A DNA stretch of 61,554 nt, counting the filler, from Thermodesulfobacteriota bacterium (GTDB lineage: Bacteria > DASVDK01): assembly GCA_036381125.1 (NCBI GenBank). It is 6 parts of 6 records of this genome, joined end to end, with 100 filler letters (N's around TTAATTAATTAA, not from the genome) between each part and the next. Parts side by side here need not be neighbours in the genome. Positions count along the whole stretch, not along the records: positions 24,549 to 49,022 come from DASVDK010000362.1; 5 more parts are not named here. One strand, 5' to 3'. Numbering within the stretch: position 1 is the stretch's first letter; the number at the start of each line of letters is the position of its first letter. The notes below the pieces were generated by a model. The model made no database searches and had not been told where the DNA came from. It saw nothing but the letters and a program-made list of their open reading frames with translations. The translations under genes were made by a program, and so were the position numbers. Shown here one piece after another: positions 24,449 to 44,755 of this stretch.

Positions 24449-24548
24449 NNNNNNNNNNNNNNNNNNNNNNNNNNNNNNNNNNNNNNNNNNNNTTAATTAA
24501 TTAANNNNNNNNNNNNNNNNNNNNNNNNNNNNNNNNNNNNNNNNNNNN
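24449..24548. other. Artificial contig spacer
   Basis: N44-TTAATTAATTAA-N44. Confidence 0.99.
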
Positions 24549-25467
24549 CTCGCTCGAGGTGGCCGCGGGGGAGATCTGCGTGCTGATCGGGCCGTCCGGC
24601 TCCGGCAAGACGACCACGATGCGGATGATCAACCGGCTCGAGCTGCCGACGGCCGGGCGCATCACGGTCGGCGGGCGGGACATCGCGGCGCTCGACGACG
24701 TCGAACTGCGGCGCGGGATCGGCTACGTGATCCAGCAGGTCGGGCTCTTCCCGCACATGACCGTGGCGGACAACGTGGCGATCGTGCCGCGCCTGCTCGA
24801 GTGGCCGGCCGACAGGCGGCGCCGCCGCGCCGAGGAGCTCCTCGAGCTGGTCGGCCTCGAGCCCGCGCGGTTCGCGGATCGCTATCCGCGGCAGCTCTCG
24901 GGGGGGCAACAGCAACGGGTCGGCGTCGCGCGGGCGCTGGCGGCCGACCCGCCGATCGTCCTGATGGACGAGCCGTTCGGCGCGGTCGATCCGATCACGC
25001 GCAAGCAGCTCCAGTGGGAGCTCCGGCGAATCCAGGCCGAGGTGCACAAGACGATCGTCTTCGTCACGCACGACATCGGCGAGGCGTTCCTGCTCGGCGA
25101 CCGGATCGTGCTCATGGCCGACGGCCGGATCGTGCAGCACGGCGCACCCCACGACCTGCTTCGCCGTCCCGAGGACCCGTTCGTGACCAGCTTCATCGGC
25201 GAGAACCGGGCCGCGGGGATGCTCCAGTACACGACCCTCGCGGAGCTGGCCCGGCCGGCGACCGAGGGCCCGCGGCCGGGCGTGGAAGCCCTTCCGGCGA
25301 CGCTCTCGGTGCTCGACGCGCTCAGGCGGCTCGGCCGGCGCCCGGACGAGGCCGGGGACGCCATCTGGGTGGCCGACCCGGCGGGCGGGCCGGCCGGCCG
25401 CCTCACCTACCGGGACCTCGTCGTCGCGATCGGCGAGGCGATGGCGGACGATGCGCTACCTCGTTGA
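24549..25467 (+). CDS. Osmoprotectant-type (OpuC/OsmV-like) ABC ATPase (5' truncated)
   Basis: GPSGSGKTT, LRRGIGYVIQQVGLFPH, LSGGQQQRVGVARALAADP, LMDEPFGAVDP. Confidence 0.92.
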
Positions 25468-26086
25468 GCACCCGCAGCGCGTGCTCGAGCTCGCGCTGCA
25501 GCACCTCGAGATCGTCGCCGCCTCCGTCCTGGTCGCCGTCCTCATCGGCGTGCCGGTGGGCGTCCTCGTGACGCGCCTGCGGTGGCTCGAGGGGCCGGTC
25601 ATGCACGTCGCCGGCGTCCTCTACACCGTCCCGAGTCTCGCCCTCTTCGCGGTGCTCATTCCCTTCACGGGGCTCGGCGCGCGGCCGGCGATCGTCGCGC
25701 TGATCCTCTACTCCCTGCTCGCGATCATCCGCAACACCGTGGCCGGGATCGATGCCGTCGACCCCGCGACGCTCGAGGCGGCACGGGGCATGGGCATGAC
25801 CGGCACCCAGCGCCTCTTGCTCGTCGAGCTGCCGCTCGGGCTTCCGATCATCCTGGCCGGCGTGCGCCTCGCCGCCGTGGCGGCCATCGGGATCGCGACC
25901 GTGGCGGCGTACGTGGGCGCCGGCGGCCTCGGCCTGCTCATCTTCGACGGCCTGCGCACCCTCGACGCGGACCGCGTGCTCGGCGGCGCCCTGGCGACGT
26001 CGGCCATGGCGCTCGCCGTCGACGCCGGCCTGGCCCGGCTCGGCGGCAGGCGCCGCGAGGACACCGCGCAGGCGACCGGCGGCTGA
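25451..26086 (+). CDS. Osmoprotectant-type ABC permease
   Basis: YTVPSLALF, EAARGMGM, VELPLGLP, GAGGLG. Confidence 0.93.
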   Translation: MRYLVEHPQRVLELALQHLEIVAASVLVAVLIGVPVGVLVTRLRWLEGPVMHVAGVLYTVPSLALFAVLIPFTGLGARPAIVALILYSLLAIIRNTVAGIDAVDPATLEAARGMGMTGTQRLLLVELPLGLPIILAGVRLAAVAAIGIATVAAYVGAGGLGLLIFDGLRTLDADRVLGGALATSAMALAVDAGLARLGGRRREDTAQATGG

Positions 26087-26097
26087 GGAGATTCCCG

Positions 26098-26754
26098 ATG
26101 GGCAACCCGTTCGGCTTCGTGGCCTACATCCTGGAACACCCCGAGAGCTTCCTCGAGCTACTCCGGCAGCACGTCGAGCTGACCGCCCTGTCGGTCCTCT
26201 TCGGCGTCCTCGCCGCCCTCCCGCTCGCGGTCCTGGCCAGTCGCATCAACGCGCTGGCCGGCCCGATGACGTGGCTCGCCGGCGTCGGCCAGACGATCCC
26301 GAGCCTCGCCATCCTCGCCCTCGTCCTGCCGTTCCTCGGCATCGGGTTCGCGCCGTCGCTCTTCGCGCTGACGATCCGCGCGCTCCTGCCGATCTTCCTG
26401 AACGCCTACGTCGGCATCCGCGGCGTCGACAAGGCCGCGATCGAGGCGGCGCGCGGGATGGGCATGAACGGCGCCGAGCGGCTCTTCCTCGTGGAGCTCC
26501 CGCTGGCGGTCCCGGTCATCCTGGCCGGCGTCCAGACCGCGACGGTCCAGAACGTCGGGGTCGCCACGCTCGCGGCCTTCATCGGCGGCGGGGGACTCGG
26601 TGACCTGATCCTCCAGGGGCTCGCCATGGTCGACACGCCGGTGCTCCTCGCCGGCGCCGTGCCGGTCGCGCTGCTCGCGATGCTGGCCGACGTCGGGATG
26701 CGGCGCATCGGCCGCCTGCTCACGCCGGGCGGCCTGCGGGCGGCGCGCGCATGA
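26098..26754 (+). CDS. Osmoprotectant-type ABC permease (second)
   Basis: GQTIPSLAIL, EAARGMGM, VELPLAVP, GGGGLG; GAGGAG RBS. Confidence 0.93.
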   Translation: MGNPFGFVAYILEHPESFLELLRQHVELTALSVLFGVLAALPLAVLASRINALAGPMTWLAGVGQTIPSLAILALVLPFLGIGFAPSLFALTIRALLPIFLNAYVGIRGVDKAAIEAARGMGMNGAERLFLVELPLAVPVILAGVQTATVQNVGVATLAAFIGGGGLGDLILQGLAMVDTPVLLAGAVPVALLAMLADVGMRRIGRLLTPGGLRAARA

Positions 26755-28130
26755 GCGCGGGAGCCCGGACGCGTCGGGTCGCGCAGTTCGCGCGCGACGT
26801 CCGCTGGGCCGATCTGCCCGCGGCCGTGCAGGCACAGGCGGTTCGCTGCCTGCTGGACCTCTGCGGCTCGGCGGTCGCCGGCAGCCTCACCCCGGTCGCC
26901 CGGATCGCCGCCGCGTACGCCCGGGCGGCGCACGGCCCGGGCGGGGCGACCATCATCGGCGCCGACAGCGGCAGCACACCGGTCGGCGCGGCGCTCGCCA
27001 ACGGCTTCGCCGCCTCGGCGCTCGACATCGACGACGGCTACCGCCCCGTCAAGGGGCATCCGGGCGCGGTCGTCCTGCCCGCCGTCCTCGCGGCCGCCGA
27101 GCAGGCCCGCGCGAGCGGCTCCGAGTTCCTGACGGCGCTCGTCGTCGCCTACGAGGTCGCCATGCGCGCCGGACGCATCCTGCACCCGCTCTACGGCTTC
27201 TACCACGGCACCGGGGCCTGGGGGCCGGTCGGCGCGGCGGCCGGCGCGGCGCGCCTCCTCCGCCTCACGCCCGACGAGACCTGGCACGCGCTCGGCATCG
27301 CCGAGTTCCACGCGGCGATGACCCCCGAGATGCGGTCGGTCGACCACCCGAGCATGCTCAAGGACGGCATCGGGTGGGGCGCCATGGTCGGGCTCGCCTC
27401 CGTCGGGCTCGCGGCCGCGGGCTTCACCGGGATCCCGAGCCTCTTCGACGCCGGGCCCGAGGGCGCCGCGCTCTGCGAGAGCCTTGGCCGCGACTACCTG
27501 GTCCTGGATCTCTACTTCAAGCCGTACCCCTGTTGCCGGTGGGCGCAGCCGGCGGTCGAAGGGGCGCTCGCGGCCGCGCGTGCCCTGGGCGTGCGGGGCG
27601 ACGAGATTGCCCGGGTCACGGTGTACACGTTCGAGGCGGCGACCCACCTGCGCGCCGTCGCGCCCCGGACCACCGAGGAGGCGCAGTTCAGCCTCCCCTG
27701 GCCGGTCGCCTGCGCGCTCCTCGGCGGCACCGTCGGGCCTGCCGACGTGCTCGGCGCCGCCCTCGAGGATGCCGCCCGCCGCCGGCTCGCGGCCCGCGTG
27801 GCGATCGTCGAGGAGCCGGAACTCTCCCGGCAGTTCCCGGCGCGGGCCCTGGCCCGGGTCGAGGTCGAGACGGCCGACGGCCGCCGCGCCCGCTCCGGCG
27901 TGGTCGCCGCGCGCGGCGACGCCGACGCCCCGCCCGCCGACGCCGAACTGCGGGAGAAGTTCCATCGCCTCGCCGACCCCGTCCTCGGGACCTCCGGCGC
28001 GCGTTCGCTCGCGGCCGCGGTCGAGGACCTGCCCGGGGCCGAGAGCCTGGACCGTCTCCTCGAACGGCTCCGCGTTCCTGCGCCGGCTCCATCGGGCGGC
28101 GCCCCACTCGCTACCAGGAGGTTGCCGTGA
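26751..28130 (+). CDS. MmgE/PrpD family protein (copy 1)
   Basis: ALANG...LDIDDG...GHPGAVVLPA, YHGTG, FKPYPCC, AQFSLPW. Confidence 0.92.
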   Translation: MSAGARTRRVAQFARDVRWADLPAAVQAQAVRCLLDLCGSAVAGSLTPVARIAAAYARAAHGPGGATIIGADSGSTPVGAALANGFAASALDIDDGYRPVKGHPGAVVLPAVLAAAEQARASGSEFLTALVVAYEVAMRAGRILHPLYGFYHGTGAWGPVGAAAGAARLLRLTPDETWHALGIAEFHAAMTPEMRSVDHPSMLKDGIGWGAMVGLASVGLAAAGFTGIPSLFDAGPEGAALCESLGRDYLVLDLYFKPYPCCRWAQPAVEGALAAARALGVRGDEIARVTVYTFEAATHLRAVAPRTTEEAQFSLPWPVACALLGGTVGPADVLGAALEDAARRRLAARVAIVEEPELSRQFPARALARVEVETADGRRARSGVVAARGDADAPPADAELREKFHRLADPVLGTSGARSLAAAVEDLPGAESLDRLLERLRVPAPAPSGGAPLATRRLP

Positions 28131-29032
28131 TGAACCATCGGACGCTCCTCGCCGCGCTCGTGGCTGCCCTCCTCGCGGCCGCCGCGCTCCTTGCGCCGAC
28201 CGCCGACGCCGGTCAGGCCGGGAAGACGGTCACGGTCGGCTCCAAGAACTTCACCGAGCAGCTCATCGTGGGCCAGATGGTTGCCGCGCTGCTCGAGCAC
28301 GCGGGCTACCAGGTCGATCGCAAGCTGAACCTCGGCGGCACCGCGGTGGTGCACCAGGCGCTCGTCAGCGGCGACGTCGACGTGTACGTCGAGTACACGG
28401 GGACCGGCCTCACGGCGCTGCTCAAGCTTCCCGTGCAGACCGACCCGGAGCAGGTGTTCCGCACCGTCAAGAAGGAGTACGAGAGCCGCTTCAAGGCCAC
28501 CTGGCTCGAACCCTGGGGCTTCAACAACACCTACGCGCTCGCGATGCGGGCGGACAGGGCCAGGGCGCTCGGCGTGAGGACGATCGCCGACCTCGAGGAC
28601 AAGGCGCAGGATCTCACGTTCGGCGGGACGCAGGAGTTCATCACCCGGCCGGACGGCCTGCCCGGCATCGAGAAGACGTACGGCCTCAAGTTCAAGCAGG
28701 CGCGCGGGATGGACTTCGGCATCATGTACCAGGCCGTCGCCTCCGGCCAGGTCGACGTCGCCTCCGCCTTCGCCACCGACGGCCGCATCGCCGCGCTCGA
28801 CCTCGTGACGCTCGAGGACGACCGGCGGTTCTTCCCGCCCTACTACGCCGCCCCGGTCGTCCGGCAGGAGGTCATCGGCAGGGACCCGAGGATCGCCGAG
28901 GTCCTCAACACGCTCGCCGGCAAGGTCGACGACGACACGATGCGCAGGCTGAACGCCCAGGTGGATCAGGAGAAGAAGGAGCCGGCGGACGTGGCCCGCG
29001 CCTTCCTCAAGGAGCGGGGCTACATCAACTGA
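28130..29032 (+). CDS. Glycine betaine/OpuAC-family ABC substrate-binding protein
   Basis: Signal peptide; VGSKNFTEQ, YVEYTGT, GFNNTYA, RPDG, LEDDRRFFPPY. Confidence 0.93.
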   Translation: MNHRTLLAALVAALLAAAALLAPTADAGQAGKTVTVGSKNFTEQLIVGQMVAALLEHAGYQVDRKLNLGGTAVVHQALVSGDVDVYVEYTGTGLTALLKLPVQTDPEQVFRTVKKEYESRFKATWLEPWGFNNTYALAMRADRARALGVRTIADLEDKAQDLTFGGTQEFITRPDGLPGIEKTYGLKFKQARGMDFGIMYQAVASGQVDVASAFATDGRIAALDLVTLEDDRRFFPPYYAAPVVRQEVIGRDPRIAEVLNTLAGKVDDDTMRRLNAQVDQEKKEPADVARAFLKERGYIN

Positions 29033-30771: not shown

Positions 30772-31530
30772 TCAGAACGCGAAGCGCCGCAACCCGCCGT
30801 CCACGTGGATCACCTCGCCCGTGATGTAGCCCGCCCTGGGCGAGGCCAGGAAGGCGACGAGGTGCGCCACGTCCCGGGGCTCGCCGAAGTGGCCGAGCGG
30901 GATGTTGGCCTTCGCGAACGCCTCCCGATCCTCGGGCGTCGGGTGGAGGCGCTCGACGATCTGCTCGCTCATGATCCGGCCGGGCGGGATGGAGTTGACG
31001 GTGATGCCGTAGGGGCCGACCTCCCGCGAGAGGCCCTTGGCCCAGGCGTGCACCGCCGCCTTCGCGGCGTTGGCGGCGTTCATCCCCCGGGGCTCGGACG
31101 AGCCGGTGATGTTGACGATCCGGCCCCATCGGTGCTGGCGCATGGAGGGGAGAAGCGCGTGCGTGAGCCGCCGCAACGCCACGAAGTTGACGGCGAAGGC
31201 CTCCGTCCACTGCTCCTCGGTGGCGTCGACCGGCAGCGGGCGCGAGCCGCCCGCGCTGTTCACGAGGATGTCGGCGCGCCCGAACGCGCCGAGGACGCGG
31301 TCGCGGACGAGCGTGTGGGCGTCCGGCGTGCCGAGGTCCACCGCAACGACGAGCGGGCGGGGCGCTCCGGAGGCGGCGAGGTCGTCCGCGAGTCGCTCGA
31401 GGCGCTCGGCGCGTCGCGCCACGACGGCGAGCTGCACCCCTTCGGCCGCCAGCACCTCGGCGACCGCGTGCCCGATGCCCGCGCTCGCCCCGGTCACGAC
31501 CGCTACCCGACCACGTAGCTCCAGGTCCAC
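30772..31530 (-). CDS. Short-chain dehydrogenase/reductase (atypical: catalytic Tyr absent, A-N-A-A-K in place of YxxxK)
   Basis: VTGASAGIG, LVNSAGG, ITVNSIPPGRI, YITGEVIHVDGG; AGGAGG RBS before GTG. Confidence 0.88.
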   Translation of the reverse strand: MDLELRGRVAVVTGASAGIGHAVAEVLAAEGVQLAVVARRAERLERLADDLAASGAPRPLVVAVDLGTPDAHTLVRDRVLGAFGRADILVNSAGGSRPLPVDATEEQWTEAFAVNFVALRRLTHALLPSMRQHRWGRIVNITGSSEPRGMNAANAAKAAVHAWAKGLSREVGPYGITVNSIPPGRIMSEQIVERLHPTPEDREAFAKANIPLGHFGEPRDVAHLVAFLASPRAGYITGEVIHVDGGLRRFAF

Positions 31531-31531: not shown

Positions 31532-32977
31532 TCACCGCCCTCCTGCCGCGGTCCCGCCCGCGGCCTCGTGCCATGGTCGATCGACCCCTTCCCGGCGCAG
31601 GCCTCCGAGCAGCTCGGCGACGGCGCCGGCCGACAGCGTCTCGATGCGCGCGAGCGCCTCGAGCGTGCGCGACACCCCGGCCGGCCCGAGGAGGAGGCCG
31701 AGGCACCCGCGAGCCTTGTCCGCGAGGAGACGCCCCTCGATCGGCCTGCCCCAGATGCCGGGCGGCCCATCGCACCGGCGCTCGAGCGACCGGCCGTCGG
31801 CGAGGGTGACCTCGACCCGCACGTGCATCCGGTCGAAGCGGCCCTCGATGGCCGGGTCCTGGACCAGCTCGGTGCGGGCGAGCAGGCGCTCCATGTCGTC
31901 CGCGAAGCGGCGGGCGTCGGTGAAGCTCTCGATCCCCACCCGCCCGTCGAGCAGCGCGACGGCGGCCGCGTACTGGAAGCTGAACTTCCCCGCCAGGCCG
32001 CCGGCCGGCCTCGGCCGATCGACGTACGGCATGACGGGGGTGGTGATGCGCACCCGCTCGATGCCGGCGCCCGGCGGCAGCGCGGCGTGCAGGTCGAGCG
32101 CGGCGGCGATGGCGAAGTGCGTGCCGTACTGGCTCGGGAACACCTTGAAGGCGGGCCCCGGGTCGACGACGTGCAGCGTCTCGACCGGCGCGACGAGGCG
32201 CGACGGGTCGAAGGCCTCGCCGAAGAACGCGTAGCCGAAGCCGCGGCGGCCGGCCAGGGCGTCGGGGTCGGCGGTGAACCCGCGGCCGGCGAGGAGGGCG
32301 GCGTCGAGCCCCGCGGCCGCGGCGTCGCCGCAGTGGAGCCCCTTGGTCATGCTGCCGACGTTGACCAGCACCGCCCCGGCCCGCGACGCGGCGATCCCGA
32401 GGGCGTGCGCGAGCCGCTCGGCGTCGAGCCCGAGGAGCACGGCGCTCGCCGCGGCGGCGCCGAGGGGGCCGACCACGCCCGGCGGATGGAACGTGAGCTG
32501 TGCGGGCTCGTACTGGCCCGACGCGAGCCGCAGCCGCGCCTGCGCCTCGATGCCGACGGCCAGCGCGAGGAGGAGCCGCTCGCCGTCGGGGACCGCCCGC
32601 GCCGCCGGCCCCGGCAGCTCGACGCCGCGCGACAGGGTCTCGCCGAGGGCGAGGATCGCCGGCAGCGTGGTGGAGACGGCGTGGTTGGGCGGGTTCCACA
32701 TCGGCTCCCAGTCGAGGACGTGCATCGCCGCCCCGTTCGTCCGGGCGGCGGCGACCGGGTCGGTGCGGAAGCCCTGGCCGATGACGGTGGCGACCGGCGC
32801 GCCGCCGGCGGCGGCGGCCTGCGCCGCCAGGAGGCGCGGCCCCTCCTCGAGGCTGCCGGCCGCGGCGATGGCGACGCCGTCGACCACGAGATCGCGGCAC
32901 GTCGCGCGCTCGGCGTCGGTCAGCCCGCGGGCGGCGACGGTGAGGAGCAGCCGGGCGAAGTCCGCCGTCAGGCTCAT
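31532..32977 (-). CDS. MmgE/PrpD family protein with ACOD1/IRG1 (cis-aconitate decarboxylase)-like motifs (copy 2)
   Basis: HVLDWEPMWNPPNH, FHPPGVVG, TKGLH, AFKVFPSQYGTH, PYVDRPRP, FSFQY, GIWGRP. Confidence 0.88.
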   Translation of the reverse strand: MSLTADFARLLLTVAARGLTDAERATCRDLVVDGVAIAAAGSLEEGPRLLAAQAAAAGGAPVATVIGQGFRTDPVAAARTNGAAMHVLDWEPMWNPPNHAVSTTLPAILALGETLSRGVELPGPAARAVPDGERLLLALAVGIEAQARLRLASGQYEPAQLTFHPPGVVGPLGAAAASAVLLGLDAERLAHALGIAASRAGAVLVNVGSMTKGLHCGDAAAAGLDAALLAGRGFTADPDALAGRRGFGYAFFGEAFDPSRLVAPVETLHVVDPGPAFKVFPSQYGTHFAIAAALDLHAALPPGAGIERVRITTPVMPYVDRPRPAGGLAGKFSFQYAAAVALLDGRVGIESFTDARRFADDMERLLARTELVQDPAIEGRFDRMHVRVEVTLADGRSLERRCDGPPGIWGRPIEGRLLADKARGCLGLLLGPAGVSRTLEALARIETLSAGAVAELLGGLRREGVDRPWHEAAGGTAAGGR

Positions 32978-34347
32978 GCCGCCGGCCGCTCGAGAAGCCC
33001 GAGGAGGTCGCCGGCGGACCACCGGTCGAGGTCGCCGACGGCGGCCTCGACGCGCCCCGCCCCCGCCTCGCCGAGGATCGGCGCGGCCAGCGCCCGGAAC
33101 TTCGCGCGCAGGGCGGCGTCGCGGCCGGGGTTGGCCGGCGACCCGGACGGGTCGAGCACGTCGACGCGACGGAACCGGCCGGGCGCCTCCTCGATCTCGA
33201 CCCAGCCGGCGAAGCGGCCGGGATAGATCGCGTCGAGCGCCGGGTCGTGGACCACCTCGATCGACTCGGCCAGGGCGGTGACGGTCCGGTCGGCGATGCG
33301 GTCGGGCGCGAACTGCCGCGGCAGGACCGCGCCGTCGGCGAGCGCCACGGCCACGCAGTAGCGGAGGCTCATCTGGGCGTTGAGGGCGGTGCCGGGGCGG
33401 TAGGGGTAGCCGCACTGGACGTCCACCACGCGGGCGACGCCGGCGCGCACGCGCGCCCCGGGCCGGTAGCTCCCCCGGAGGGCGAGCGCGGCGTCGATGT
33501 GGGGGTGCACGCTGCCGCAGCACGAGTACGGCTTGAAGGTCGTCTCGGCGGCGTGCCAGGCGGCGCCGAGACCGCCGACGAGGCGCCCCGGATCCGAGTG
33601 GTCGGAGAAGGCCTCGAGGAGCCCGCCGTCGGCCGCCTCGTACACGCTGGTCGGCCCGGTGAAGCCGAGCGCGGCGAGCTCCGCCGCGAGGACGCCCGAC
33701 TGCGCGGACCGCCCGGGATGGAACCGCTTGCTCATCGACCCGTCGGCGTTGAAGGCGAAGAGGCCGGCGGACTGGGTGCCGGCGAGGCCGAGCGCCCACG
33801 CGGTCCGCTCCGCGTCGAAGCCGAGGAGGATGGCCGCCGCCGCCGCCGCGCCGAACGTGCCGCAGACGCCGGTCAGGTGCCAGCCGCGCAGGCGGGCGTG
33901 CGACGGCTCGAGGGCGAGCGCCGTGCGGATCATCACCTCGTAGCCGGCGACGATGGCCGTCTCGAGCCGCTCCCCCCCGGCGCCGTACGCCTCCGCCGTG
34001 GCGAGCGCCGCCGGGACGACGACCGCGCCGGGGTGGAGCTTCGCGTTGTGGAAGTCGTCCAGCTCGAAGGCGTGGGCGGCGACGCCGTTGACCAGCGCGG
34101 CGTCGCTCGGGCGCAGGTTGCCGCGGCCGCTCCCCCACCGGCGGGCCAGCGGCGCCTCGCCGCCGGGCGCCCACCGCGACGCCCAGTCGGCGACGATCCC
34201 GGTCCACGGCTGGTCCATGCCGGCGAGGCCGACGCCGAGCGTGTCGAGGACGAAGAGGCGGACGGCGCGGCGGACCGGCTCCGGGACGTCCTCGTGCCGC
34301 AGCCCGGCCAGCCAGCCGGCGACGGTCCTCGTGACCCCCTCGCTCAC
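32974..34347 (-). CDS. MmgE/PrpD family protein (copy 3)
   Basis: AHAFELDDFH...LHPGAVV, GWHLTG, SKRFHPG, FKPYSCC, AQMSLRY; GTG start overlaps the prpF stop. Confidence 0.92.
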   Translation of the reverse strand: MSEGVTRTVAGWLAGLRHEDVPEPVRRAVRLFVLDTLGVGLAGMDQPWTGIVADWASRWAPGGEAPLARRWGSGRGNLRPSDAALVNGVAAHAFELDDFHNAKLHPGAVVVPAALATAEAYGAGGERLETAIVAGYEVMIRTALALEPSHARLRGWHLTGVCGTFGAAAAAAILLGFDAERTAWALGLAGTQSAGLFAFNADGSMSKRFHPGRSAQSGVLAAELAALGFTGPTSVYEAADGGLLEAFSDHSDPGRLVGGLGAAWHAAETTFKPYSCCGSVHPHIDAALALRGSYRPGARVRAGVARVVDVQCGYPYRPGTALNAQMSLRYCVAVALADGAVLPRQFAPDRIADRTVTALAESIEVVHDPALDAIYPGRFAGWVEIEEAPGRFRRVDVLDPSGSPANPGRDAALRAKFRALAAPILGEAGAGRVEAAVGDLDRWSAGDLLGLLERPAA

Positions 34348-35519
34348 GCGGCGACTCCCGACCGGCGGTAGAACACGTAGCCCTCGAAGAGCCGGCGCGC
34401 GGTGCGGTAGACCGTGGCGTACTCGGCCCTGAAGCCGGCGCCGGGCCCCCCCGCCCCGTTGCGCGTGACCGCCGCGTTCACGACGGTGACCCCCGACGCG
34501 TGCGCGATCCGGATGTCCGCATCCGGCCTGGCCGGCGGGGCGGCCAGCTCGTGGGGGAGGCTCCCCTCGATGCGCGTCGCGACGGCGAGGCACATGGCGC
34601 CGGTCAGCGGCACGGCCCGGTGGGGCTGGCCGATGGAGATCATCCGCACGGCGATGTCCATGTCCTCGGGCGCGAGCGTCCGCCCCGACAGCGTCGTGGC
34701 CGGCCGCGGCGCCGCCACCATCGCCACCTTGGGCACGCTCGGGATCGCCCGCGCGCGCTCCGGGTCGGGCGCGAGCCCCATGGCCACCGATGCGGCGCAG
34801 CGGATGGCCTCGAGGCGCGCCATCCGCTCGCGGTCCCGCTCCAGCGCCTCGGGGGCCTCGCTGCCGTCGCACCCCAGGTCCGACGCCGCGACGAAGACGC
34901 AGGGGTTGGCGGCGTCGACGAGGCTCGCCCGGACGCGGCCGACGCCGGCGACCTCGAGGACGTCCACCGGCCGGCCGGTCGGCAGGAGCCGGCCCGTCTT
35001 CGCGCCGCCGGGGTCGGTGAAGTCGAGCCGGATCGGCGCCCCCGCCCCGGCGACGCCGTCCAGCACGAAGTCGCCGTCGACGGCCGCCCGGTCCCCCTCC
35101 AGGTCGAAGCGGGCGACGATGATCTTCCGCGTGTTGGTGTTGTGGATCCGGACCGTCGCCCGTCGGCCGGTCGCCCGGACGATCCCCTCGTCGACGCTGA
35201 ACGGGCCGATCGCCGACGACATGTTCCCGCAGTTGCCGCTGTAGTCGACCGATGCCTCCCGGACCGACACCTGGCCGAACGTGTAGTCGACGTCGGCGTC
35301 CGGCCGGCTCGGCGGGCCGACGATGCAGACCTTCGAGAGCGACGAGATGCCGCCCCCCATGCCGTCGAGCTGCCGCCCGTTCGGATCGGGCGAGCCCATG
35401 GCGGCGAGGAAGAGCCGGTCCCGGGCCGCCGCGTCGGCCGGGAGGTCCTCGGCGCGGAAGACGATGCCCTTCGATGTCCCGCCGCGCATGAAGACGGCGC
35501 GGACCTTCCCCTGCGCCAC
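34344..35519 (-). CDS. prpF: PrpF/FldA family isomerase (aconitate isomerase / 4-oxalomesaconate tautomerase-like)
   Basis: MRGGTSKG, QLDGMGGGISSLSK, GNCGNMSSA, HRAVPLTG, RTARRLFEG. Confidence 0.9.
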   Translation of the reverse strand: MAQGKVRAVFMRGGTSKGIVFRAEDLPADAAARDRLFLAAMGSPDPNGRQLDGMGGGISSLSKVCIVGPPSRPDADVDYTFGQVSVREASVDYSGNCGNMSSAIGPFSVDEGIVRATGRRATVRIHNTNTRKIIVARFDLEGDRAAVDGDFVLDGVAGAGAPIRLDFTDPGGAKTGRLLPTGRPVDVLEVAGVGRVRASLVDAANPCVFVAASDLGCDGSEAPEALERDRERMARLEAIRCAASVAMGLAPDPERARAIPSVPKVAMVAAPRPATTLSGRTLAPEDMDIAVRMISIGQPHRAVPLTGAMCLAVATRIEGSLPHELAAPPARPDADIRIAHASGVTVVNAAVTRNGAGGPGAGFRAEYATVYRTARRLFEGYVFYRRSGVAA

Positions 35520-35529: not shown

Positions 35530-37026
35530 CTAGCCGCGCGCGAGGCGGGCGGCCGAGGCGCCCGCGAGGCGCCCGAAGACGGCGCCCGAGGTGAGGCCGG
35601 TCCCGCCCGGGTAGTTGTAGTGGAAGATGTTGCCGACCATCTCGCCGCAGGCGAAGAGCCCCGTGATGGGACGCCAGCCGGTGTCGAGCACCCGCGCCTG
35701 GTCGTCGATCTTGAGGCCGCCGAACGAGAAGGTGATGCCGCCGGTGCAGGGATAGCAGACGAACGGCGGGGTGTCGAGCCGCTGGGCCCAGTTGGACTTG
35801 GGCGGCGTGAGCCCCTTCGTGCACATGCCGTCGAGGATGCCCGGATTGAACGTCCCGTGGCCGGCCGCCGCGTTGTACTCGTCGAGCGTCCGGCGGGCCG
35901 TCGCGCGGTCGATCGGCAGCTTCTCGAGCAACCCGTCGAGGGTGTCGGCCACGATCGGCTCGCTCGTGGCGTAGCGCCCCTCGAGCAGGTGCACGACCTT
36001 CTGGTCGAAGATCTGGTAGGCGACCGAGTCCGGCTGGTTCAGGATGATGCCGCCGAACTTCGCGTAGGTGAAGAACTGGAAGTCCTCCGCCTCGTCGACG
36101 AACCGGAGGCCCGCCTTGTTGAGCATCACGCCGTAGGGGTACGAGAGCCGGTTCGTCTTGTCGGTCAGCTCCGACACGCCGTACGGAGGGCTGTCGGCGT
36201 TGATGGGGGTGGCGTGGCAGCCGCTCCACTGGCCGATCGGCATCGCGCCGATCTCGAGCGCCATGCGCAGGCCGTCGCCCTGGTTGTGCCGCGTGCCGCG
36301 CACCTTGGCGTGATCCCAGGGCCGGCCGAGGTACTGGGCGCGCCAGGCCTGGTTCGCCTCGAAGCCGCCGCAGCCGAGCACGACGGCCCGCGCCGGGATC
36401 GTCTCGATCCCCGCCGGGCCCTGGACCTCGATGCCGCGGACGTGGCCGGCGGCGTCCTGCACGAGGCGGCTCGCCCGGCTGTCGTAGCGGATCTCGACCC
36501 CCTTCGACTCGGCGATCGCGAACCACGAGCGCGACAGGCCGACCCCCTCGTGCACCGCGCGGATCACGGCCCCCTTCGGCCACTTGATCTTGCCGTCCAC
36601 CTTGACGCCGCCGAGCGAGACGGCCGGCTCCATCTCGATGCCGAGGCCGGCCATCCAGCGGACCGTGGCGTAGGAGTTGCCGATCAGGATGCCGGACAGC
36701 TCCGGGTCGGAGCGGCCGTTGGTGACCCGCAGGAGGTCCTCCCGGAACGCCGACGCCGGGTAGGTCTCGATCCCCTCGAGGAAGCCCTCGAGCTTCGCGG
36801 CGCTCGGGCACACCTCGAGGATCTGGTCGACGGAGTCGTAGGCGAAGCGCAGGAGGCCGCCGCTGAAGTGCGTGTTGCCGCCGCGCGCCTCGCGCGGCGC
36901 CTTCTCGAGCACCAGCACGCGGGCCGCCCCGCTCTCCTTCGCCGATACCGCTGCCGCCAGCGCCGCGTTGCCGGCGCCCACGACGACCACGTCGTACGCC
37001 TTCCCCTTCGATGCCCGTCCGCTCAC
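35530..37026 (-). CDS. tcuA: TcuA-like FAD-dependent tricarballylate dehydrogenase family flavoprotein
   Basis: YDVVVVGAGNAAL.AA, RGGNTHF, GGFEAN, YLGRPWDHAKVRGT..N.GDG, GGITFSFGGL, YPGGTGLTSGAVFG; family-level call. Confidence 0.85.
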   Translation of the reverse strand: MSGRASKGKAYDVVVVGAGNAALAAAVSAKESGAARVLVLEKAPREARGGNTHFSGGLLRFAYDSVDQILEVCPSAAKLEGFLEGIETYPASAFREDLLRVTNGRSDPELSGILIGNSYATVRWMAGLGIEMEPAVSLGGVKVDGKIKWPKGAVIRAVHEGVGLSRSWFAIAESKGVEIRYDSRASRLVQDAAGHVRGIEVQGPAGIETIPARAVVLGCGGFEANQAWRAQYLGRPWDHAKVRGTRHNQGDGLRMALEIGAMPIGQWSGCHATPINADSPPYGVSELTDKTNRLSYPYGVMLNKAGLRFVDEAEDFQFFTYAKFGGIILNQPDSVAYQIFDQKVVHLLEGRYATSEPIVADTLDGLLEKLPIDRATARRTLDEYNAAAGHGTFNPGILDGMCTKGLTPPKSNWAQRLDTPPFVCYPCTGGITFSFGGLKIDDQARVLDTGWRPITGLFACGEMVGNIFHYNYPGGTGLTSGAVFGRLAGASAARLARG

Positions 37027-37342: not shown

Positions 37343-37687
37343 CTTGAGCATGGAGGCGTGTGGCCGGAACGACACGCAAGCGGCGAGCCCGTCGCGTCCG
37401 GAGTTCTCGTACCGCGCTCGACGCGACGCGGCCATCCCGGCACGGGCTCGGGGCTCCCGGTCCGACGCGAAGGCGGAGAGGGTGAGCCGAGACGGGGCGA
37501 ACCGCCGGCACCCGATCTCGTGTCGCCGCGTGCGGCGGCGAGTCGGCGACGCGACGATGGACGCCCCCGACACCGACCCCGGCCGAGCCCCCCGTGGCCT
37601 CCTCGTGCGACGGCTCGACCCGCCGGCGCCGGAGCGCCCGGCCGGCGGGGGCCGCATCGGGGACTTCTGCTTCTCGGGCACGAAGCG

Positions 37688-37882
37688 ATGAGCGAAGCCG
37701 AAACGAAGCGACTGGCGAGCGCGGCAGGGCTCGCGAGACTGGATGCTCGCCACCTGGACCAGCTCGCCAGGAGCATCGACAAGAGCCGCTCGCATACGAG
37801 CCGGCTGCCGAAGGACCTGGCCTGGAACGAGGAGGTCGCCTTCACGTTCCGACCTCGCCCCAACCTCAGGACGAACCGGTGA
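37688..37882 (+). CDS. Small (64 aa) putative amidase partner protein (AtzG/GatC-like)
   Basis: LASAAGL..L...HL.QL...LP.DL.WNEE.AFTF pattern; stop overlaps the amidase GTG (GTGA). Confidence 0.55.
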   Translation: MSEAETKRLASAAGLARLDARHLDQLARSIDKSRSHTSRLPKDLAWNEEVAFTFRPRPNLRTNR

Positions 37883-39279
37883 CCGAACTGGCCTTCGTCG
37901 GCGTCGCTCGCGCGGCCGAGATGATCCGGGCGAAGGAGCTGTCGCCGGTCGAGTATACGCAGCAGCTCCTCGCCCGGATCGACCGGATCGATGCGCGGCT
38001 GCACGCGTTCCTGAGCGTCTGTGCGGATCGCGCGCTCGCCGCGGCCCGAGAGGCGGAGCGCGAGATCATGGCCGGCGCCTACCGCGGGCCTCTGCACGGC
38101 GTCCCGTTCGCGCTGAAGGACGTCATCGATGCGGCCGGACTGAGGACCACCGCGCATTCGAGGCTCCTGAGGGAGAACGTCGCTGCGGAGGACGCCTTCG
38201 TCACGTCCCGGCTGCGCGCGGCCGGGGCCGTGCTCCTCGGAAAGCTGTCGACCCACGAGTTCGCCATCGGCGGTCCATCCTTCGACCTGCCCTGGCCGCC
38301 CGCCGTCAATCCGTGGGGTACGCGGCGCTTTCCGGGAGGATCGTCGAGCGGCTCCGGCGTCGCGGTGGCCGCGGGACTGGTGCCCGCATCGCTCGGCACG
38401 GACACGGCCGGATCGATCCGGAATCCCGCGTCGATGTGCGGCGTGACCGGCATGAAGCCGACGTACGGACTCGTCAGTCGACGCGGCGTCTTCCCGCTGG
38501 CCTATTCGCTCGATCACGTCGGCCCGATCACCCGCTCCGTCGAGGACAACGCGCTGGTGCTCCAGGCCATCGCGGGCCACGACCCGGGGGACCCCGGCAG
38601 CGCGTCGGTCGCGGTGCCCGATTACTCGGCCGACCTGCACCGCGGCGTGGCGGGCGTTCGGATCGGGCTGGTGCGCCACTTCTACACGGAAGACGCCGAG
38701 CCGGCGGACCGGGAACAGATCGCCGCCATCGATGCCGCGGTGGCCGTCTTCCGGGATCTCGGGGCCGAGGTCAGGGAGGTCCGGCTCCCTCCCCTTTCCG
38801 ATTTCGCGACCTGTGCCCGGATCATCCTGAGCTCCGAGGCATTCGCGATCCATCGAGGCTGGCTGGCGGCTCGCGCGGACGAGTACGGCGAGCTCGCGCG
38901 GGCCCGCATCCTCGAAGGGGCCGGCGTCACGGCCGCGGACTACATCGACGCGCAGCGCTTGCGCACGCGCCTGTGCCGTCTGACGCAGGACGCCATGGCG
39001 GACGTCGACGTGTGCGTAACCGCCTCCAGCTTCGACCCGGCGTGCGAGATCGACGACCCGGCGGCCATCGCCCGCGCGTATCCGCGCCAGGCCCGTCAGC
39101 CGTTCAACGTGACGGGGCAGCCGGCGATCGCGATACCGTGCGGCTTCACGAAGGACGGACTGCCGCTCTCGTTGCAGATCGTCGGGCATCCGTTCGAGGA
39201 AGCGACCGTGTACCGCGTCGCTCACGCGTACGAGCGTGCAACCCGTTGGATCGACCGGCATCCGCCGTGTGAGGCGTGA
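37879..39279 (+). CDS. Amidase signature family protein (GatA/AtzE-like)
   Basis: GPLHGVPFALKD, GGSSSGS, GTDTAGSIRNPA, SLDHVGP. Confidence 0.94.
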   Translation: MTELAFVGVARAAEMIRAKELSPVEYTQQLLARIDRIDARLHAFLSVCADRALAAAREAEREIMAGAYRGPLHGVPFALKDVIDAAGLRTTAHSRLLRENVAAEDAFVTSRLRAAGAVLLGKLSTHEFAIGGPSFDLPWPPAVNPWGTRRFPGGSSSGSGVAVAAGLVPASLGTDTAGSIRNPASMCGVTGMKPTYGLVSRRGVFPLAYSLDHVGPITRSVEDNALVLQAIAGHDPGDPGSASVAVPDYSADLHRGVAGVRIGLVRHFYTEDAEPADREQIAAIDAAVAVFRDLGAEVREVRLPPLSDFATCARIILSSEAFAIHRGWLAARADEYGELARARILEGAGVTAADYIDAQRLRTRLCRLTQDAMADVDVCVTASSFDPACEIDDPAAIARAYPRQARQPFNVTGQPAIAIPCGFTKDGLPLSLQIVGHPFEEATVYRVAHAYERATRWIDRHPPCEA

Positions 39280-39352
39280 CCCGATTCGAACAAACGGTCT
39301 CACGGGTACGTCGGATCGGGACCACCTGCCGCATCCCGAAGAGAGAGGACCG

Positions 39353-40351
39353 ATGAGAAAGCCCAGGATCGCCGTGATCGGCACGGGAGGAACGATCTCG
39401 TCCATCTCGGACCATTCCCTCGAGGTGCTCGACTATCCCGAGACGGGCCGGAAGATGGAGCCTGCGGAGGCGATCGAGCGGGTGCCCGAGGCCGCCCGCT
39501 TCGCCGACCTGGTTCCGCTCTCGTTTCGCGCCGTCGGCAGCACCAGGATATCGCCGCCCGACTGGATCGAGCTTGCGCAGCTCATCATGAGGACGGCGCG
39601 CGAGGAGGCCGACGTGCGCGGCTTCGTGGTCCTACACGGCACGGCGACCCTCGAGGAGACCGCGTACTTCCTGAACCTGGTGCTCAAGACCGACAGGCCC
39701 GTGGTTCTCGTCGGCGCCCAACGGCCGGCGAGCGCCGTCAGCTCGGACGTCGGCATGAACCTGGTCTCCGCCGTGCGGACGGCCGGCGATCCTCAGGCGG
39801 TCGGAAAGGGCGTGCTGGTGGTTCTGAACGACGAGATCCACAGCGCCCGGGATGCGAGCAAGACCTCCACGTATCGGCTGCAGACCTTTCGGAGCCGGGA
39901 CGTCGGGGTGCTGGGCCACGTGGACGGGGACGGCGTGTATTTCTACCGCTCTCCCCTGCGGCGGCACACGCTGACCTCGGTCTTCGACATTGCCGACGTG
40001 ACGGCGCTGCCGCGCGTCGACATCGTCTACTCGTACGCGGGCGCCGACGGCTGCGCCGTCGACGCCTTCGTTGCCGCGGGAGCGCGGGGGCTCGTGTCCG
40101 CGGGCCTGCCCCCGGGGCTCACGGCACCGCTCGAGCGGGCCGCCCTGGAGCGGGCGGCGCAGGCCGGCGTCCTGATCGTGCAGTCGAGCCGGGCCGGAAG
40201 CGGCCGCGTGGCCCGACGCACCTATCTCAAAGAGCACGCCATGGTGGCCGCGGACAATCTCAACCCGCAGAAGGCGAGGATCCTTCTGTCGCTTGCCCTG
40301 ACGAGGTCGAGTGATGCCGACCAGGTGCAGGAGCTCTTCGATACCCACTGA
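39353..40351 (+). CDS. L-asparaginase/glutaminase family protein
   Basis: IGTGGTIS, HGTATLEETAYFL, VGAQRP, NLNPQKARILL. Confidence 0.93.
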   Translation: MRKPRIAVIGTGGTISSISDHSLEVLDYPETGRKMEPAEAIERVPEAARFADLVPLSFRAVGSTRISPPDWIELAQLIMRTAREEADVRGFVVLHGTATLEETAYFLNLVLKTDRPVVLVGAQRPASAVSSDVGMNLVSAVRTAGDPQAVGKGVLVVLNDEIHSARDASKTSTYRLQTFRSRDVGVLGHVDGDGVYFYRSPLRRHTLTSVFDIADVTALPRVDIVYSYAGADGCAVDAFVAAGARGLVSAGLPPGLTAPLERAALERAAQAGVLIVQSSRAGSGRVARRTYLKEHAMVAADNLNPQKARILLSLALTRSSDADQVQELFDTH

Positions 40352-40562
40352 TCGGACGGCCCCTGGTCTCGCCGAACGCGCGGCGCCGCGCCGCCGGCAT
40401 CGCGCCGGCGCGGGCAGGCACTGGCCCTCGACCGTCGCCATGGATGCCCGTCGGGGCAGCTCGGAACACGTGGACGTCCAGGTCACGGGTGGAGATCCAC
40501 GCGTCACGAAGAACCGGCCGTCGATGAACCGGCCTCTTGGAAACCGTCATCGGGAGAGAACG

Positions 40563-41555
40563 ATGAGACACTTCGCCGCACGCGCAACAGGGATTGTCGC
40601 CGCCGCTCTGATGCTCGCCTGGGCCGGACCCTCGTTGGCGCAGGACTACCCCAGCCGGGACATCACCTTCATCGTCCCGTTCAACCCCGGCGGCTCCACC
40701 GACCCACTGTCGCGAGCCTTCGCGGCTCAACTGGAGAAGACCCTTCCCGGCAACATCAACGTCGAGAACAGGCCGGGCGGGTCGGCCACCATCGGCACCA
40801 ACCTGGTCGTGCGCGCGAACCCGGACGGCTACACGATCGGGCTCGGCGACAGCGCCGCGCTGACCTATCAGCCGCTCGTCAACACCGGGCTCGCCTACAA
40901 GACCCCCGATGATTACCAGATCATCACGAAGCTGGCCGACGTCCCGGGCATGCTGCTCGTCCGCACGGAGGCTCCCTGGAAGACCTTCGACGATTTCATG
41001 GCCGACGTGAGGCGGAGGCCGGGCAAGATCCGGGTCGGCGTGTCGGGAGTGCGGTCGATCGCCGACCTCGTCGTCCAGCAGCTCAACCGGTCCGCCGGCG
41101 TCAAGATCGCCACGGTCCCGTTCACCGGCGGCGGAGGCGAAGCGTTGCTGGCGCTCCTGGGCGGCCGGATCGAGGCGGCGGTCGGGTACGGCGGAAACTC
41201 GATGGCCCAGGTCAATGCGGGCAAGCTCAGGGTCCTGGGGGTTTTCGCGAAGGGGAAGTACCCCCTCGCTCCGGACGCGACGTCCATCCCCGACGCGGGC
41301 TTCGACGCCACCCTGCCGGCCAGCTACACCGTGATCGCGCCCAAGGGCCTGCCGAAGGACATCCTGGACAGGCTCACGGAGGCCTCCAGGAAGGCCATGG
41401 AGAGCCGGGAGTTTCTGGCCTTTGCCGAGAAGAACGGCTTCGTGGTCGATCCCAAGGGCCCGGAGGAGGCGGTGGCCGAGCTTCGCGAGTTCGGCAAGGA
41501 GTTCGCCAGCCTCATCGAGTGGCTGGATCGGATCGAGGCGGGTGCTGCCAGGTGA
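40563..41555 (+). CDS. tctC: Tripartite tricarboxylate transporter substrate-binding protein (TctC/Bug)
   Basis: Signal peptide, YPSRDITFIVPFNPGGSTD, VENRPGG, PDGYTI. Confidence 0.93.
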   Translation: MRHFAARATGIVAAALMLAWAGPSLAQDYPSRDITFIVPFNPGGSTDPLSRAFAAQLEKTLPGNINVENRPGGSATIGTNLVVRANPDGYTIGLGDSAALTYQPLVNTGLAYKTPDDYQIITKLADVPGMLLVRTEAPWKTFDDFMADVRRRPGKIRVGVSGVRSIADLVVQQLNRSAGVKIATVPFTGGGGEALLALLGGRIEAAVGYGGNSMAQVNAGKLRVLGVFAKGKYPLAPDATSIPDAGFDATLPASYTVIAPKGLPKDILDRLTEASRKAMESREFLAFAEKNGFVVDPKGPEEAVAELREFGKEFASLIEWLDRIEAGAAR

Positions 41556-42025
41556 GCGGCGCTCCCGTTCGGAAGCGCACGGGGTACCTCGCCATAGGCG
41601 GAATCGGCGTGCTGCTCGCCGCCGCCTACCTCGGCATGGCGTTGCAGATGCCGTTCGGACGGTTGAGCCAGCCCGGGGCGGCGGTGTTCCCGCTCATCGT
41701 CGGTGGTTTGCTCGTGGTGGGCAGTCTGGCGACGATCTGGGAAGGCTGGAAGACAGGACCCGCCGAGCGGGTCGAGTTTCCGGCCGGAGCGGATCGCGCC
41801 CGCCTGCTCGGGGTCGTCGGGTTGCTGCTGGGCTACTTCGTGGCCCTACCGTGGCTCGGTCAGCTGCTCAGCAGCACCCTCTTCTGCATCCTGCTCATGC
41901 GTCTGCTGTCGAGCCTCGCGTGGCCGCGCGTGGCCCTGTACTCGATCCTCATCACGGGGACCCTGTACGCGGTGTTCATCCACCTGCTCGGGGTCCCGAT
42001 GCCGCGCGGTGTGCTGGCCGGATAA
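41552..42025 (+). CDS. tctB: TTT small membrane subunit TctB
   Basis: PGAAVFP, 4 TM, VFIHLLGVPMPRG. Confidence 0.88.
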   Translation: MSGAPVRKRTGYLAIGGIGVLLAAAYLGMALQMPFGRLSQPGAAVFPLIVGGLLVVGSLATIWEGWKTGPAERVEFPAGADRARLLGVVGLLLGYFVALPWLGQLLSSTLFCILLMRLLSSLAWPRVALYSILITGTLYAVFIHLLGVPMPRGVLAG

Positions 42026-42040
42026 CGAGGGGTCGGCCCG

Positions 42041-43567: not shown

Positions 43568-43941
43568 CGTACGTCCTCGGGCCCGGACGCATCGGGCCGA
43601 GTGCCGCGCCGGCCACGGGCCGGCAGGATCGCAGCTCGCTTCGCTGGTTCAGCAGGGCGTAGGTTATACTGCGACCGGGCCGACCGACGTGACGAGCTCC
43701 GCGCGCGGGAGCCGGCGGTGAAGAAGAACATCGGGTCTGTCGGACCGGGCGCGCGCGCCGAGACGACGGCAAGCGGGGGACGCGGAGGCGTCCGTCTCCC
43801 GTCGACCAGACCGCCGTCTCGGGCCGCCGCCAGGCCCGCACCGGGAGATCGGCGACCGGCCGCGACACGCGGCCCGGTGCGACCGCCTCGAGGCGGCTCG
43901 GCTCACGCGCGATGTGCCGGGCCCACTCTGGCAATGGAGCC

Positions 43942-44718: not shown

Positions 44719-44755
44719 GCCAACACGAGCTGGTGAAGCAGAGGAGGGCTCTTCC

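Follow-up and report, generated by a model that had tools for sequence, protein, structure and literature searches.

A bacterial relative of animal ACOD1 with a fixed, altered active-site pocket in a conserved and probably catabolic gene cluster

A 61,554-nucleotide stretch of the Thermodesulfobacteriota bacterium assembly GCA_036381125.1 (the window), in which parts of six records of the genome are joined end to end, carries a minus-strand gene (the target; Table 1) for an MmgE/PrpD protein that resembles animal ACOD1/IRG1, the cis-aconitate decarboxylase (CAD) that forms itaconate. Judged from its sequence, the target is an ACOD1-like variant within a known superfamily; what is new here is that its clade shares invariant changes in the active-site pocket and that its genes lie in a conserved catabolic cluster. 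We tentatively propose that the target decarboxylates cis-aconitate or a close analogue without a cofactor, as a step in polycarboxylate catabolism.

The target open reading frame (ORF) has the coding pattern of G+C at third codon positions (GC3) in a window of 72.9% G+C, and a pseudogene or chance ORF is ruled out by the intact frame, this GC3 pattern, a 93% identical ortholog and a strongly conserved clade. Membership of the MmgE/PrpD superfamily is evident from the N-terminal domain (PF03972, MmgE_PrpD_N; 169 bits) and the C-terminal domain (PF19305, MmgE_PrpD_C; 101 bits), both with cut-offs of 32.1, and from the two-domain fold, as seen with Pfam, an AlphaFold2 (AF2) model and Foldseek. 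All eight motifs that an earlier note on this DNA had quoted for the protein occur as written in its translation, namely HVLDWEPMWNPPNH at residues 86-99, FHPPGVVGPLGAAAA from 163, TKGLHCG at 211-217, AFKVFPSQYGTH at 276-287, ITTPVMPYVDRPRP, FSFQYAAAVALLDGRVGIESF from 332, EVTLADG, and GIWGRP at 407-412. The ACOD1 motifs that the note set beside them can be seen in phmmer alignments to PDB chains 7br9, 6r6t (mouse) and 12vw. The 12vw alignment reads AFKSFP, not the wild-type AFKRFP given there, because this structure is the human ACOD1 R273S mutant (Table 1 of PMC13495696).

Among PDB sequences searched with phmmer, the target matches mouse ACOD1 best, at 196.6 bits (E 8e-57), and human ACOD1 at 193 bits, with IDS epimerase at 112, Bacillus subtilis 'IRG1' at 104 and PrpD at 48. 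The window contains two further MmgE/PrpD paralogs, PrpD2 with ELDDFHNAKLHPG and FKPYSCCG, and PrpD3 with LDIDDGYRPVKGHPG and FKPYPCC. These are the ordinary paralogs that the earlier note had described nearby, and both are nearest to IDS epimerase. Used as controls, PrpD2 scores 128 bits with IDS epimerase, 109 with B. subtilis 'IRG1' and 98 with ACOD1, and PrpD3 scores 114, 79 and 71 respectively; PrpD is absent among the matches of either at E 1e-5 or better. As both window paralogs rank IDS epimerase first and the target ranks ACOD1 first, the target is specifically ACOD1-like. It also stays far below the NCBIfam PrpD equivalogs TIGR02330 (41 bits; cut-off 458) and NF006943 (45 bits; cut-off 575).

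The AF2 model of the target, built on a 30-sequence alignment, has a mean predicted local distance difference test score (pLDDT) of 87.1 and a predicted TM-score (pTM) of 0.89. Foldseek places six ACOD1 chains on top (query TM-score, TMq, 0.83-0.85; identity ~30-31%), followed by B. subtilis IRG1 and IDS epimerase (TMq 0.79-0.82) and then PrpD (0.66-0.72), and MmgE/PrpD structures make up all of the matches listed with E values up to 5.7e-7. This ranking is taken as supporting evidence because all these enzymes have the same fold. Scores, fold ranking and the tree described below support an ACOD1-like protein rather than a generic MmgE/PrpD or IDS-epimerase-like one.

The comparison with characterised relatives can be summarized as follows. 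Human and mouse ACOD1 (EC 4.1.1.6; PDB 6r6u, 6r6t, 7br9) share the MmgE/PrpD fold with the target, are its best sequence match and belong to a common supported tree clade, although ACOD1 is an interferon-induced immune gene and the target lies in a bacterial catabolic operon. With the 2-methylcitrate dehydratase PrpD/MmgE the Pfam domains are common, whereas the PrpD scores and TMq are far lower than those of ACOD1. IDS epimerase (PDB 2hp0/2hp3) and Msi have the same fold and the conserved carboxylate-binding residues, although IDS epimerase is a weaker match for the target than for either window paralog. Aspergillus terreus CadA belongs to the same superfamily, on a distant branch that is 23-25% identical to the mammalian enzymes (PMC6789909 section 9; preprint 10.1101/2022.06.17.496652). 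B. subtilis 'IRG1' is described in PMC12290011 as no relative of CAD, and the same paper describes most bacterial MmgE/PrpD proteins as uncharacterised.

Active-site residues are numbered here as in human ACOD1 after Chen et al. 2019 (PMC6789909). The phmmer alignment keeps six of the eight (D93=D89, H103=H99, H159=H164, K207=K212, K272=K278 and Y318=Y318; human first, target second) and replaces two, T97 by Met93 and H277 by Gln283. The alignment thereby bears out the mapping that had been drawn by eye, in which the Asp, two His, two Lys and the Tyr were kept and the Thr and third His appeared as Met and Gln. With six residues of eight, and judged by its predicted active site, the target is not an ACOD1 ortholog. 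The six residues kept are those with which ACOD1 holds the C4-dicarboxylate core and transfers the proton. The core-binding set (D89, H99, H164, K212 and K278) is invariant in 121 of 121 clade sequences, these being the target and the 120 matches listed from a word-index search. Also invariant in the 121 are Cys216, Glu91-Pro92, Asn98, Lys331, Phe332 and all six retained ACOD1 residues, and Asn95 is nearly so (118 of 121). The substrates of all characterised MmgE/PrpD enzymes are built on a succinate core that is substituted at C2/C3, and for all members of the family a mechanism is proposed in which two Lys hold an enolate and a His is the base (section 14 of PMC12290011). The target retains this enolate machinery.

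The target is the fourth of five minus-strand genes whose ends abut or overlap, and which form a tightly packed operon (Table 1). The first gene product is an FAD (flavin adenine dinucleotide) protein with the Pfam domain FAD_binding_2. It scores 547 bits with NCBIfam NF006130, 'FAD-dependent tricarballylate dehydrogenase TcuA' (cut-off 369), and falls below the older TIGR02485 (273 bits; cut-off 372.55); among solved structures it is nearest to soluble flavocytochrome fumarate reductases. The second is a PrpF-family isomerase (Pfam PrpF, E 4e-117), for which the NCBIfam OMA (4-oxalomesaconate) tautomerase and PrpF models give 335 and 311 bits, both under cut-offs of ~440, and whose best PDB match is 3-methylitaconate isomerase (3g7k, 300 bits), with PrpF (2pvz) at 268 bits. 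TcuA converts tricarballylate to cis-aconitate; PrpF and Mii shift double bonds in methylaconitate and methylitaconate, and Mii slowly interconverts itaconate and citraconate.

The conservation of this neighbourhood was examined in a motif-seeded scan with one genome per species, which gave 168 stretches with 149 confirmed relatives; the best 80, at 46-93% identity to the target, were taken as loci. Neighbours were counted by tblastn with defined queries, each stretch being assigned to its best query at a coverage of at least 60%, and with ortholog thresholds of at least 45% identity for TcuA-like and PrpF-like genes, at least 40% for GntR (with a locus-representative query) and at least 25% for SDR and TctC. 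Single-linkage ORF clusters of the neighbours were mixed with antisense shadow ORFs (e.g. C3, C6 and C8) and were set aside in favour of the defined queries. Many of the 80 loci are cut by contig ends. A second count is given for the 26 loci with flanks of 8 kb or more on each side and an identity of 53% or more; all counts are inflated by related genomes.

The most frequent neighbours of the target are the binding protein (37/80; 18/26), permease (37/80; 18/26) and ATPase (35/80; 18/26) of an ATP-binding cassette (ABC) importer, followed by an MmgE/PrpD paralog of type A (31/80; 12/26), a TcuA-like gene (30/80; 15/26), a GntR regulator (29/80; 15/26), a PrpF-like gene (25/80, in 16 directly upstream on the same strand; 14/26), an MmgE/PrpD paralog of type B (19/80; 11/26) and a TctC-family gene (19/80; 6/26). 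A TcuA-like or PrpF-like gene is present in 41 of the 80 loci and in 21 of the 26. SDR genes (6/80; 1/26) and PrpD2-type genes (5/80; 3/26) are found less often, and the PrpD2 orthologs lie directly upstream of the target in L019, L034, L040 and L048 at 62-65% identity and in L002 at 94%. The order and strand of the partners vary between loci, a pattern that speaks for a functional connection and not just for common inheritance.

In the window itself the regulator and importer lie beyond the operon, on the plus strand. The window GntR protein is 60% identical to the GntR beside the orthologs and, used as the query, finds relatives of at least 45% identity in 27 loci; the window importer proteins are 56-59% identical to the module beside the orthologs. 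The window thus carries the whole cluster, split by the intervening amidase, asparaginase-like, TctC and TctA genes. It is uncertain whether these intervening genes are part of the pathway; an amidase gene is near the target in four of the 80 loci. The importer matches in NCBIfam are all far under their cut-offs, and for the binding protein only distant matches of Fe3+-binding and 2-aminoethylphosphonate type were found, the best PDB matches of a locus representative being distant Fe3+-binding proteins at 75 bits.

The steady partners of the target belong to the TcuA and PrpF/Mii families, which act in the same chemical neighbourhood, and this argues for a catabolic role on a branched polycarboxylate of aconitate or itaconate type; the TcuA-like and PrpF/Mii-like partners fit the aconitate-like substrate that the earlier note had suggested. 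The homology to ACOD1 in turn points to decarboxylation of the enoate made by the dehydrogenase. In the pathway that we propose, the importer would bring in a saturated branched polycarboxylate of tricarballylate type, and the TcuA-like enzyme would dehydrogenate it to an enoate of cis-aconitate type. The target would decarboxylate this enoate through an enolate intermediate to an itaconate-type product, the PrpF-like isomerase would shift the double bond of the substrate or of the product, and the paralog or paralogs and the SDR protein would hydrate and oxidise the remainder. What the analysis establishes directly is the family and fold of the target, its closest relatives, its residue states, the structure of the operon and the synteny, whereas the substrate class and the decarboxylation step are inferred.

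Two known systems offer partial parallels. The operon shares a TcuA-family partner with the Salmonella tcu system, whereas neither TcuB nor TcuC was seen among the annotated neighbours. In combining an isomerase with a putative decarboxylase of aconitate type, it resembles the Ustilago itaconate route, in which Adi1 is PrpF-like. The Ustilago route runs via trans-aconitate, and its decarboxylase Tad1 has a different fold, like that of fumarate lyases (PMC6789909 section 9).

Several observations weigh against the decarboxylase proposal, beginning with the pocket. Met93 and Gln283 are found in 121 of 121 clade sequences. The amphioxus and octopus sequences carry other residues at these two positions and at Cys216, Phe332 and Asn95 of the target, and human and mouse ACOD1 also differ from the clade at human positions 97 and 277. 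In human CAD, most or all activity is lost when any of the eight residues is mutated to alanine, and activity was 'abolished or markedly reduced' in the rare variants Thr97Met and His277Tyr, in part through lower stability (PMC6789909). Met93 thus corresponds to a change that inactivates the human enzyme, and Gln283 stands at a residue whose Ala and Tyr mutants do so. When positions fixed in the clade (at least 97% one residue) were compared with those fixed in six amphioxus and octopus sequences, 52 of the 74 columns fixed in both had the same residue and 22 a different one. Fourteen of these 22 fall within segments 88-98, 282-288 and 328-332, which contain or border on D93-H103, K272-H277 and the residues following Y318. 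Besides T97 and H277, 20 more positions are therefore fixed differently from amphioxus and octopus, 12 of them in the three active-site segments, which argues for a changed pocket. At about 31-33% identity, as between the target and ACOD1, the reaction type is often not conserved in the MmgE/PrpD family. A. terreus CAD has the activity even though four of its eight positions deviate from those of the human enzyme (PMC6789909 section 10), so two replacements in the target do not exclude CAD activity; the pocket as read from the alignments lowers the odds of plain cis-aconitate decarboxylase activity, without excluding it.

The remaining points of this kind concern the neighbourhood and the pathway. 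The scan was seeded with PSQYGTHF and MTK[AC]LHCG, so that the 80 loci hold Gln283 and Cys216 by construction, and the co-occurrence counts carry no chance control. None of the partners is present in 11 of the 80 loci (two of the 26), and loci below 53% identity are mostly without the FAD and PrpF genes, a TcuA-like or PrpF-like gene being found in six of 27. The annotated conserved neighbours, for which Pfam was run on 20 representatives of the 30 neighbour clusters present in most loci, include neither a TcuB-like partner nor genes of the itaconate-CoA pathway. Finally, cis-aconitate, if truly made by the dehydrogenase, could enter the tricarboxylic acid (TCA) cycle directly, which leaves a decarboxylase without an obvious need.

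A role without decarboxylation is nearly as likely as the decarboxylase role, because of the altered pocket, the many paralogs in the clusters and the expansion of the family in a related genome. The same enolate chemistry would then epimerise or isomerise, or hydrate or dehydrate, a substituted succinate or tricarboxylate, in the manner of IDS epimerase, methylsuccinate isomerase or PrpD, and the target would belong to a set of specialised MmgE/PrpD paralogs that between them deal with the stereoisomers or the consecutive steps of a single catabolic pathway. The family at large covers dehydration, decarboxylation and epimerisation via a shared enolate mechanism (PMC12290011 section 14), and two pocket residues are replaced clade-wide, one of them by the residue that cripples the human enzyme (Met at Thr97). 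Paralogs are common around the target: any further MmgE/PrpD gene is near it in 44 of the 80 loci (17 of the 26), and in four (L045, L046, L057 and L063) the target is immediately followed by another gene of its own type, the two being tandem duplicates within the ACOD1-like clade that are 46-47% identical. The nearest genome searched (G001), a 3.3-Mb draft, has 16 matches to the MmgE/PrpD N-terminal domain (L081-L096), 15 of them over the cut-off, and this strong family expansion points to functional radiation.

The comparison with the epimerases cuts both ways. The retained human Tyr318 superposes on Tyr145, the second catalytic base of IDS epimerase (PMC6789909), whereas the target matches ACOD1 markedly better than it matches IDS epimerase (196 vs 112 bits), and PrpD2 already fills the IDS-epimerase-like slot in the operon. 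In a check for two-base epimerisation, we took the aligned His with the residue equivalences of PMC6789909 (IDS H150 = human H159 = target H164); our own count towards the N-terminus on the pairwise alignment then arrives at Ala159 rather than at a Tyr. The defining context of Msi is a place beside (RS)-methylsuccinyl-CoA dehydrogenase, usually with Ict, Ich and Ccl in an itaconate cluster (PMC12290011 section 13), and neither an (RS)-methylsuccinyl-CoA dehydrogenase neighbour nor an Ict/Ich/Ccl cluster was found among the annotated conserved neighbours. The 20 annotated representatives likewise include no acyl-CoA dehydrogenase, CoA transferase or MaoC hydratase, and an HpcH/HpaI lyase is present in only four loci.

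In a beta-proteobacterial subgroup (L056, L064, L076 and L078), genes for a TauD-like dioxygenase, an HpcH/HpaI (citrate-lyase-beta-like) lyase and TctC come after the target in place of the TcuA/PrpF set, and the enzyme type may have been recruited to another pathway there. A link of the L076 subgroup to the itaconate CoA pathway was considered and rejected, as there is only the lyase, the dioxygenase and TctC, with no CoA transferase or hydratase.

The evolutionary position of the target was addressed with a HMMER scan of 1.84 billion representatives, which gave 12,202 matches at E up to 0.001; the best 150 were used, of which 119 are full-length. Only two of these 119 carry the full eight-residue ACOD1 pattern, and both are cis-aconitate decarboxylase-like proteins of animals, Branchiostoma floridae (P0185) and Octopus bimaculoides (P0215). 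An IQ-TREE tree of 45 rows combined 40 representatives with the two animal proteins, the target, PrpD2 and PrpD3. The target falls in a 12-row clade with ultrafast bootstrap (UFBoot) 96 and SH-aLRT 99, and this lies within a 21-row clade (UFBoot 97, SH-aLRT 91) that also holds the animal proteins and four further bacterial lineages (P0157/P0152/P0186, P0147/P0170, P0140 and P0138), with the branching order inside it unresolved. Two quick trees, one with a mis-framed outgroup row, recover the same clade at 95. In approximately unbiased (AU) tests, holding the animals with the 12-row clade of the target is not rejected (difference in log likelihood, delta lnL, 7.9; p-AU 0.112), and neither is holding them with the 'DYDDTW' group around P0168 (delta lnL 30.9; p-AU 0.111). 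Of the claim in the earlier note that the target belongs to a bacterial sister clade of IRG1, the common clade with animal ACOD1-like proteins therefore stands, and direct sisterhood is neither supported nor rejected. It is a fair statement that the target is, on this tree, one of several bacterial lineages in a supported clade with metazoan ACOD1.

It is unlikely that the resemblance to ACOD1 reflects shared ancestry only, with other bacterial lineages nearest to the animals and the target clade uninformative on ACOD1. In comparisons with the amphioxus protein P0185, it is true that P0168 (251 bits), P0152 (236) and P0140 (235) outscore the target clade (about 195), and the AU test permits the animals with the P0168 group. 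The tree rows were drawn from the target's own best 150 representatives, so that lineages close to the animals but far from the target are missing; PDB scores and the two invertebrate proteins stand in for vertebrate ACOD1, CadA, IDS-epimerase, Msi and PrpD references, none of which is among the rows. The free tree and the quick trees nevertheless hold the animals and the target clade together. Among the eight other bacterial members of the 21-row clade, Glu91 is found in eight, Met93 in seven and Phe332 in eight, and His is found at 283 in four (P0140, P0142, P0147 and P0170). As most of them have the Met93 state, Thr97 looks like an animal novelty in these alignments.

That the target is a true cis-aconitate decarboxylase making itaconate as an end product (antimicrobial or signal), functionally as animal ACOD1, is highly unlikely and the least supported functional reading, because an importer and a regulator are present rather than export or immunity functions: animal ACOD1 provides its nearest solved relatives and shares its clade, and JGI and UniRef supply 'aconitate decarboxylase' names, but these names are automatic transfers for which no biochemical report was found in the full-text literature, two active-site residues are replaced, and the conserved context is catabolic (importer, GntR/FCD regulator, dehydrogenase, isomerase and more paralogs), with no exporter or resistance gene conserved in the neighbourhoods analysed.

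A wider extension of the decarboxylase proposal is speculative and, taken as a whole, rather unlikely. The conserved cluster would represent a new bacterial route from tricarballylate-type acids through aconitate-type enoates to itaconate-type products, serving catabolism, and its enzyme would be of the kind from which animals derived ACOD1 by changes of Met to Thr and Gln to His.

The idea of a bacterial ACOD1 relative is less new than was first assumed, since the homology and the database label are already public. The label 'aconitate decarboxylase' (JGI, UniRef) is attached to 45 of the 120 matches listed in the word-index search, and KEGG K17724 appears in a review as a hypothetical step of purple bacteria (PMC8307300). 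The preprint 10.1101/2022.06.17.496652 concludes that Metazoa and fungi probably obtained IRG1 from prokaryotes in separate events, and reports alphaproteobacterial sequences in the clade nearest to metazoan IRG1. A search of the full-text literature, with subscription journals outside its scope, found no biochemical study of a bacterial member of the target clade and no description of a cluster of TcuA-like, PrpF-like and MmgE/PrpD genes. The automatic label on many bacterial proteins should accordingly be read with caution, as no assay behind it was found in the literature searched.

ACOD1 is a much-studied immunometabolic enzyme, and a bacterial group in its clade with a fixed, different pocket and a catabolic context would show a role of the enzyme that predates animals. 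The cluster may also uncover a new route for branched polycarboxylates (relatives of tricarballylate, aconitate and itaconate) in soil and freshwater Proteobacteria.

The target group is a large and widespread orthologous group of Alpha- and Betaproteobacteria. In the word-index search, a single protein is 93% identical and is followed by many at 51-64% identity, with named relatives in Microvirga, Humitalea, Bosea, Falsiroseomonas, Variibacter, Vineibacter, Agaricicola and Paracoccus, and the genome scan added many Betaproteobacteria. Cultivable organisms with an ortholog in that scan include Bosea lathyri DSM 26656, Microvirga brassicacearum, Agaricicola taiwanensis, Zwartia hollandica and Humitalea sp. 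The only near-identical locus is L002, a 9930-base contig on which the target is 93% identical, PrpD2 94%, the SDR protein 94%, PrpD3 91%, LysE 89% and OpuAC 93%, and where the covered genes keep the order of the window. L002 is labelled as a Thermodesulfobacteriota metagenome-assembled genome (MAG), yet the other named relatives from cultured strains are all Alpha- or Betaproteobacteria, as are nearly all those from MAGs, and the label may thus be a binning artefact. One relative (P0173) has 951 residues, about double the usual length, with two matched stretches, and may be a fused tandem MmgE/PrpD protein.

Among the other genes of the window, PrpD3 sits between the permease and the binding protein of a glycine-betaine-type ABC operon, an unusual place for such an enzyme. 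A succinyl-CoA-ligase alpha-like gene (292 bits; cut-off 353), which precedes a second TctC and TctA set, could provide a CoA-activating step for an imported carboxylate. The remaining features are given in Table 1.

Table 1. Features of the window, with positions counted along the whole stretch
Feature	Position	Strand	Remarks
FAD dehydrogenase, TcuA-like	35530-37026	minus	operon gene 1; probable GTG start at 37026 after GAGGAGAGGG; 10 bases before PrpF
PrpF-family isomerase	34344-35519	minus	operon gene 2; stop overlaps GTG of PrpD2
PrpD2, IDS-epimerase-like MmgE/PrpD paralog	32974-34347	minus	operon gene 3; GTG start; TGA overlaps target ATG (ATGA)
Target, ACOD1-like MmgE/PrpD protein (P0002)	31532-32977	minus	operon gene 4; ATG start, 481 aa, no internal stop; 1 base before SDR GTG
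SDR oxidoreductase	30772-31530	minus	operon gene 5 (last); GTG start preceded by AGGAGG; Pfam adh_short_C2
Amidase, type II asparaginase-like, TctC and TctA genes	37594-43567	plus	intervening genes; Pfam, NCBIfam; diverge from operon promoter
GntR/FCD regulator	43879-44718 (start approximate)	plus	Pfam GntR and FCD
ABC importer	44732-48759 (starts approximate)	plus	Pfam
Importer binding protein, FbpA/PhnS-like	44732-45817	plus	
Importer fused double permease	45864-47642	plus	
Importer ATPase with TOBE	47590-48759	plus	
PrpD3, MmgE/PrpD paralog	26751-28130	plus	IDS epimerase best match
Glycine-betaine-type ABC operon	24559-29032	plus	ATPase, two permeases, OpuAC binding protein
Succinyl-CoA-ligase alpha-like gene, then second TctC and TctA set	54569-58493	plus	
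Type III polyketide synthase-like	58513-59622	minus	
Arginine deiminase and amino-acid permease	49559-52241	minus	
F-type ATP synthase	2364-8064	plus	
AcrB-type efflux pump	14972-18208	plus	
Filler between joined parts	10824-10923, 13769-13868, 24449-24548, 49023-49122, 53971-54070		two 44-N runs around 12 bases in each; 440 N in total; mostly at gene boundaries

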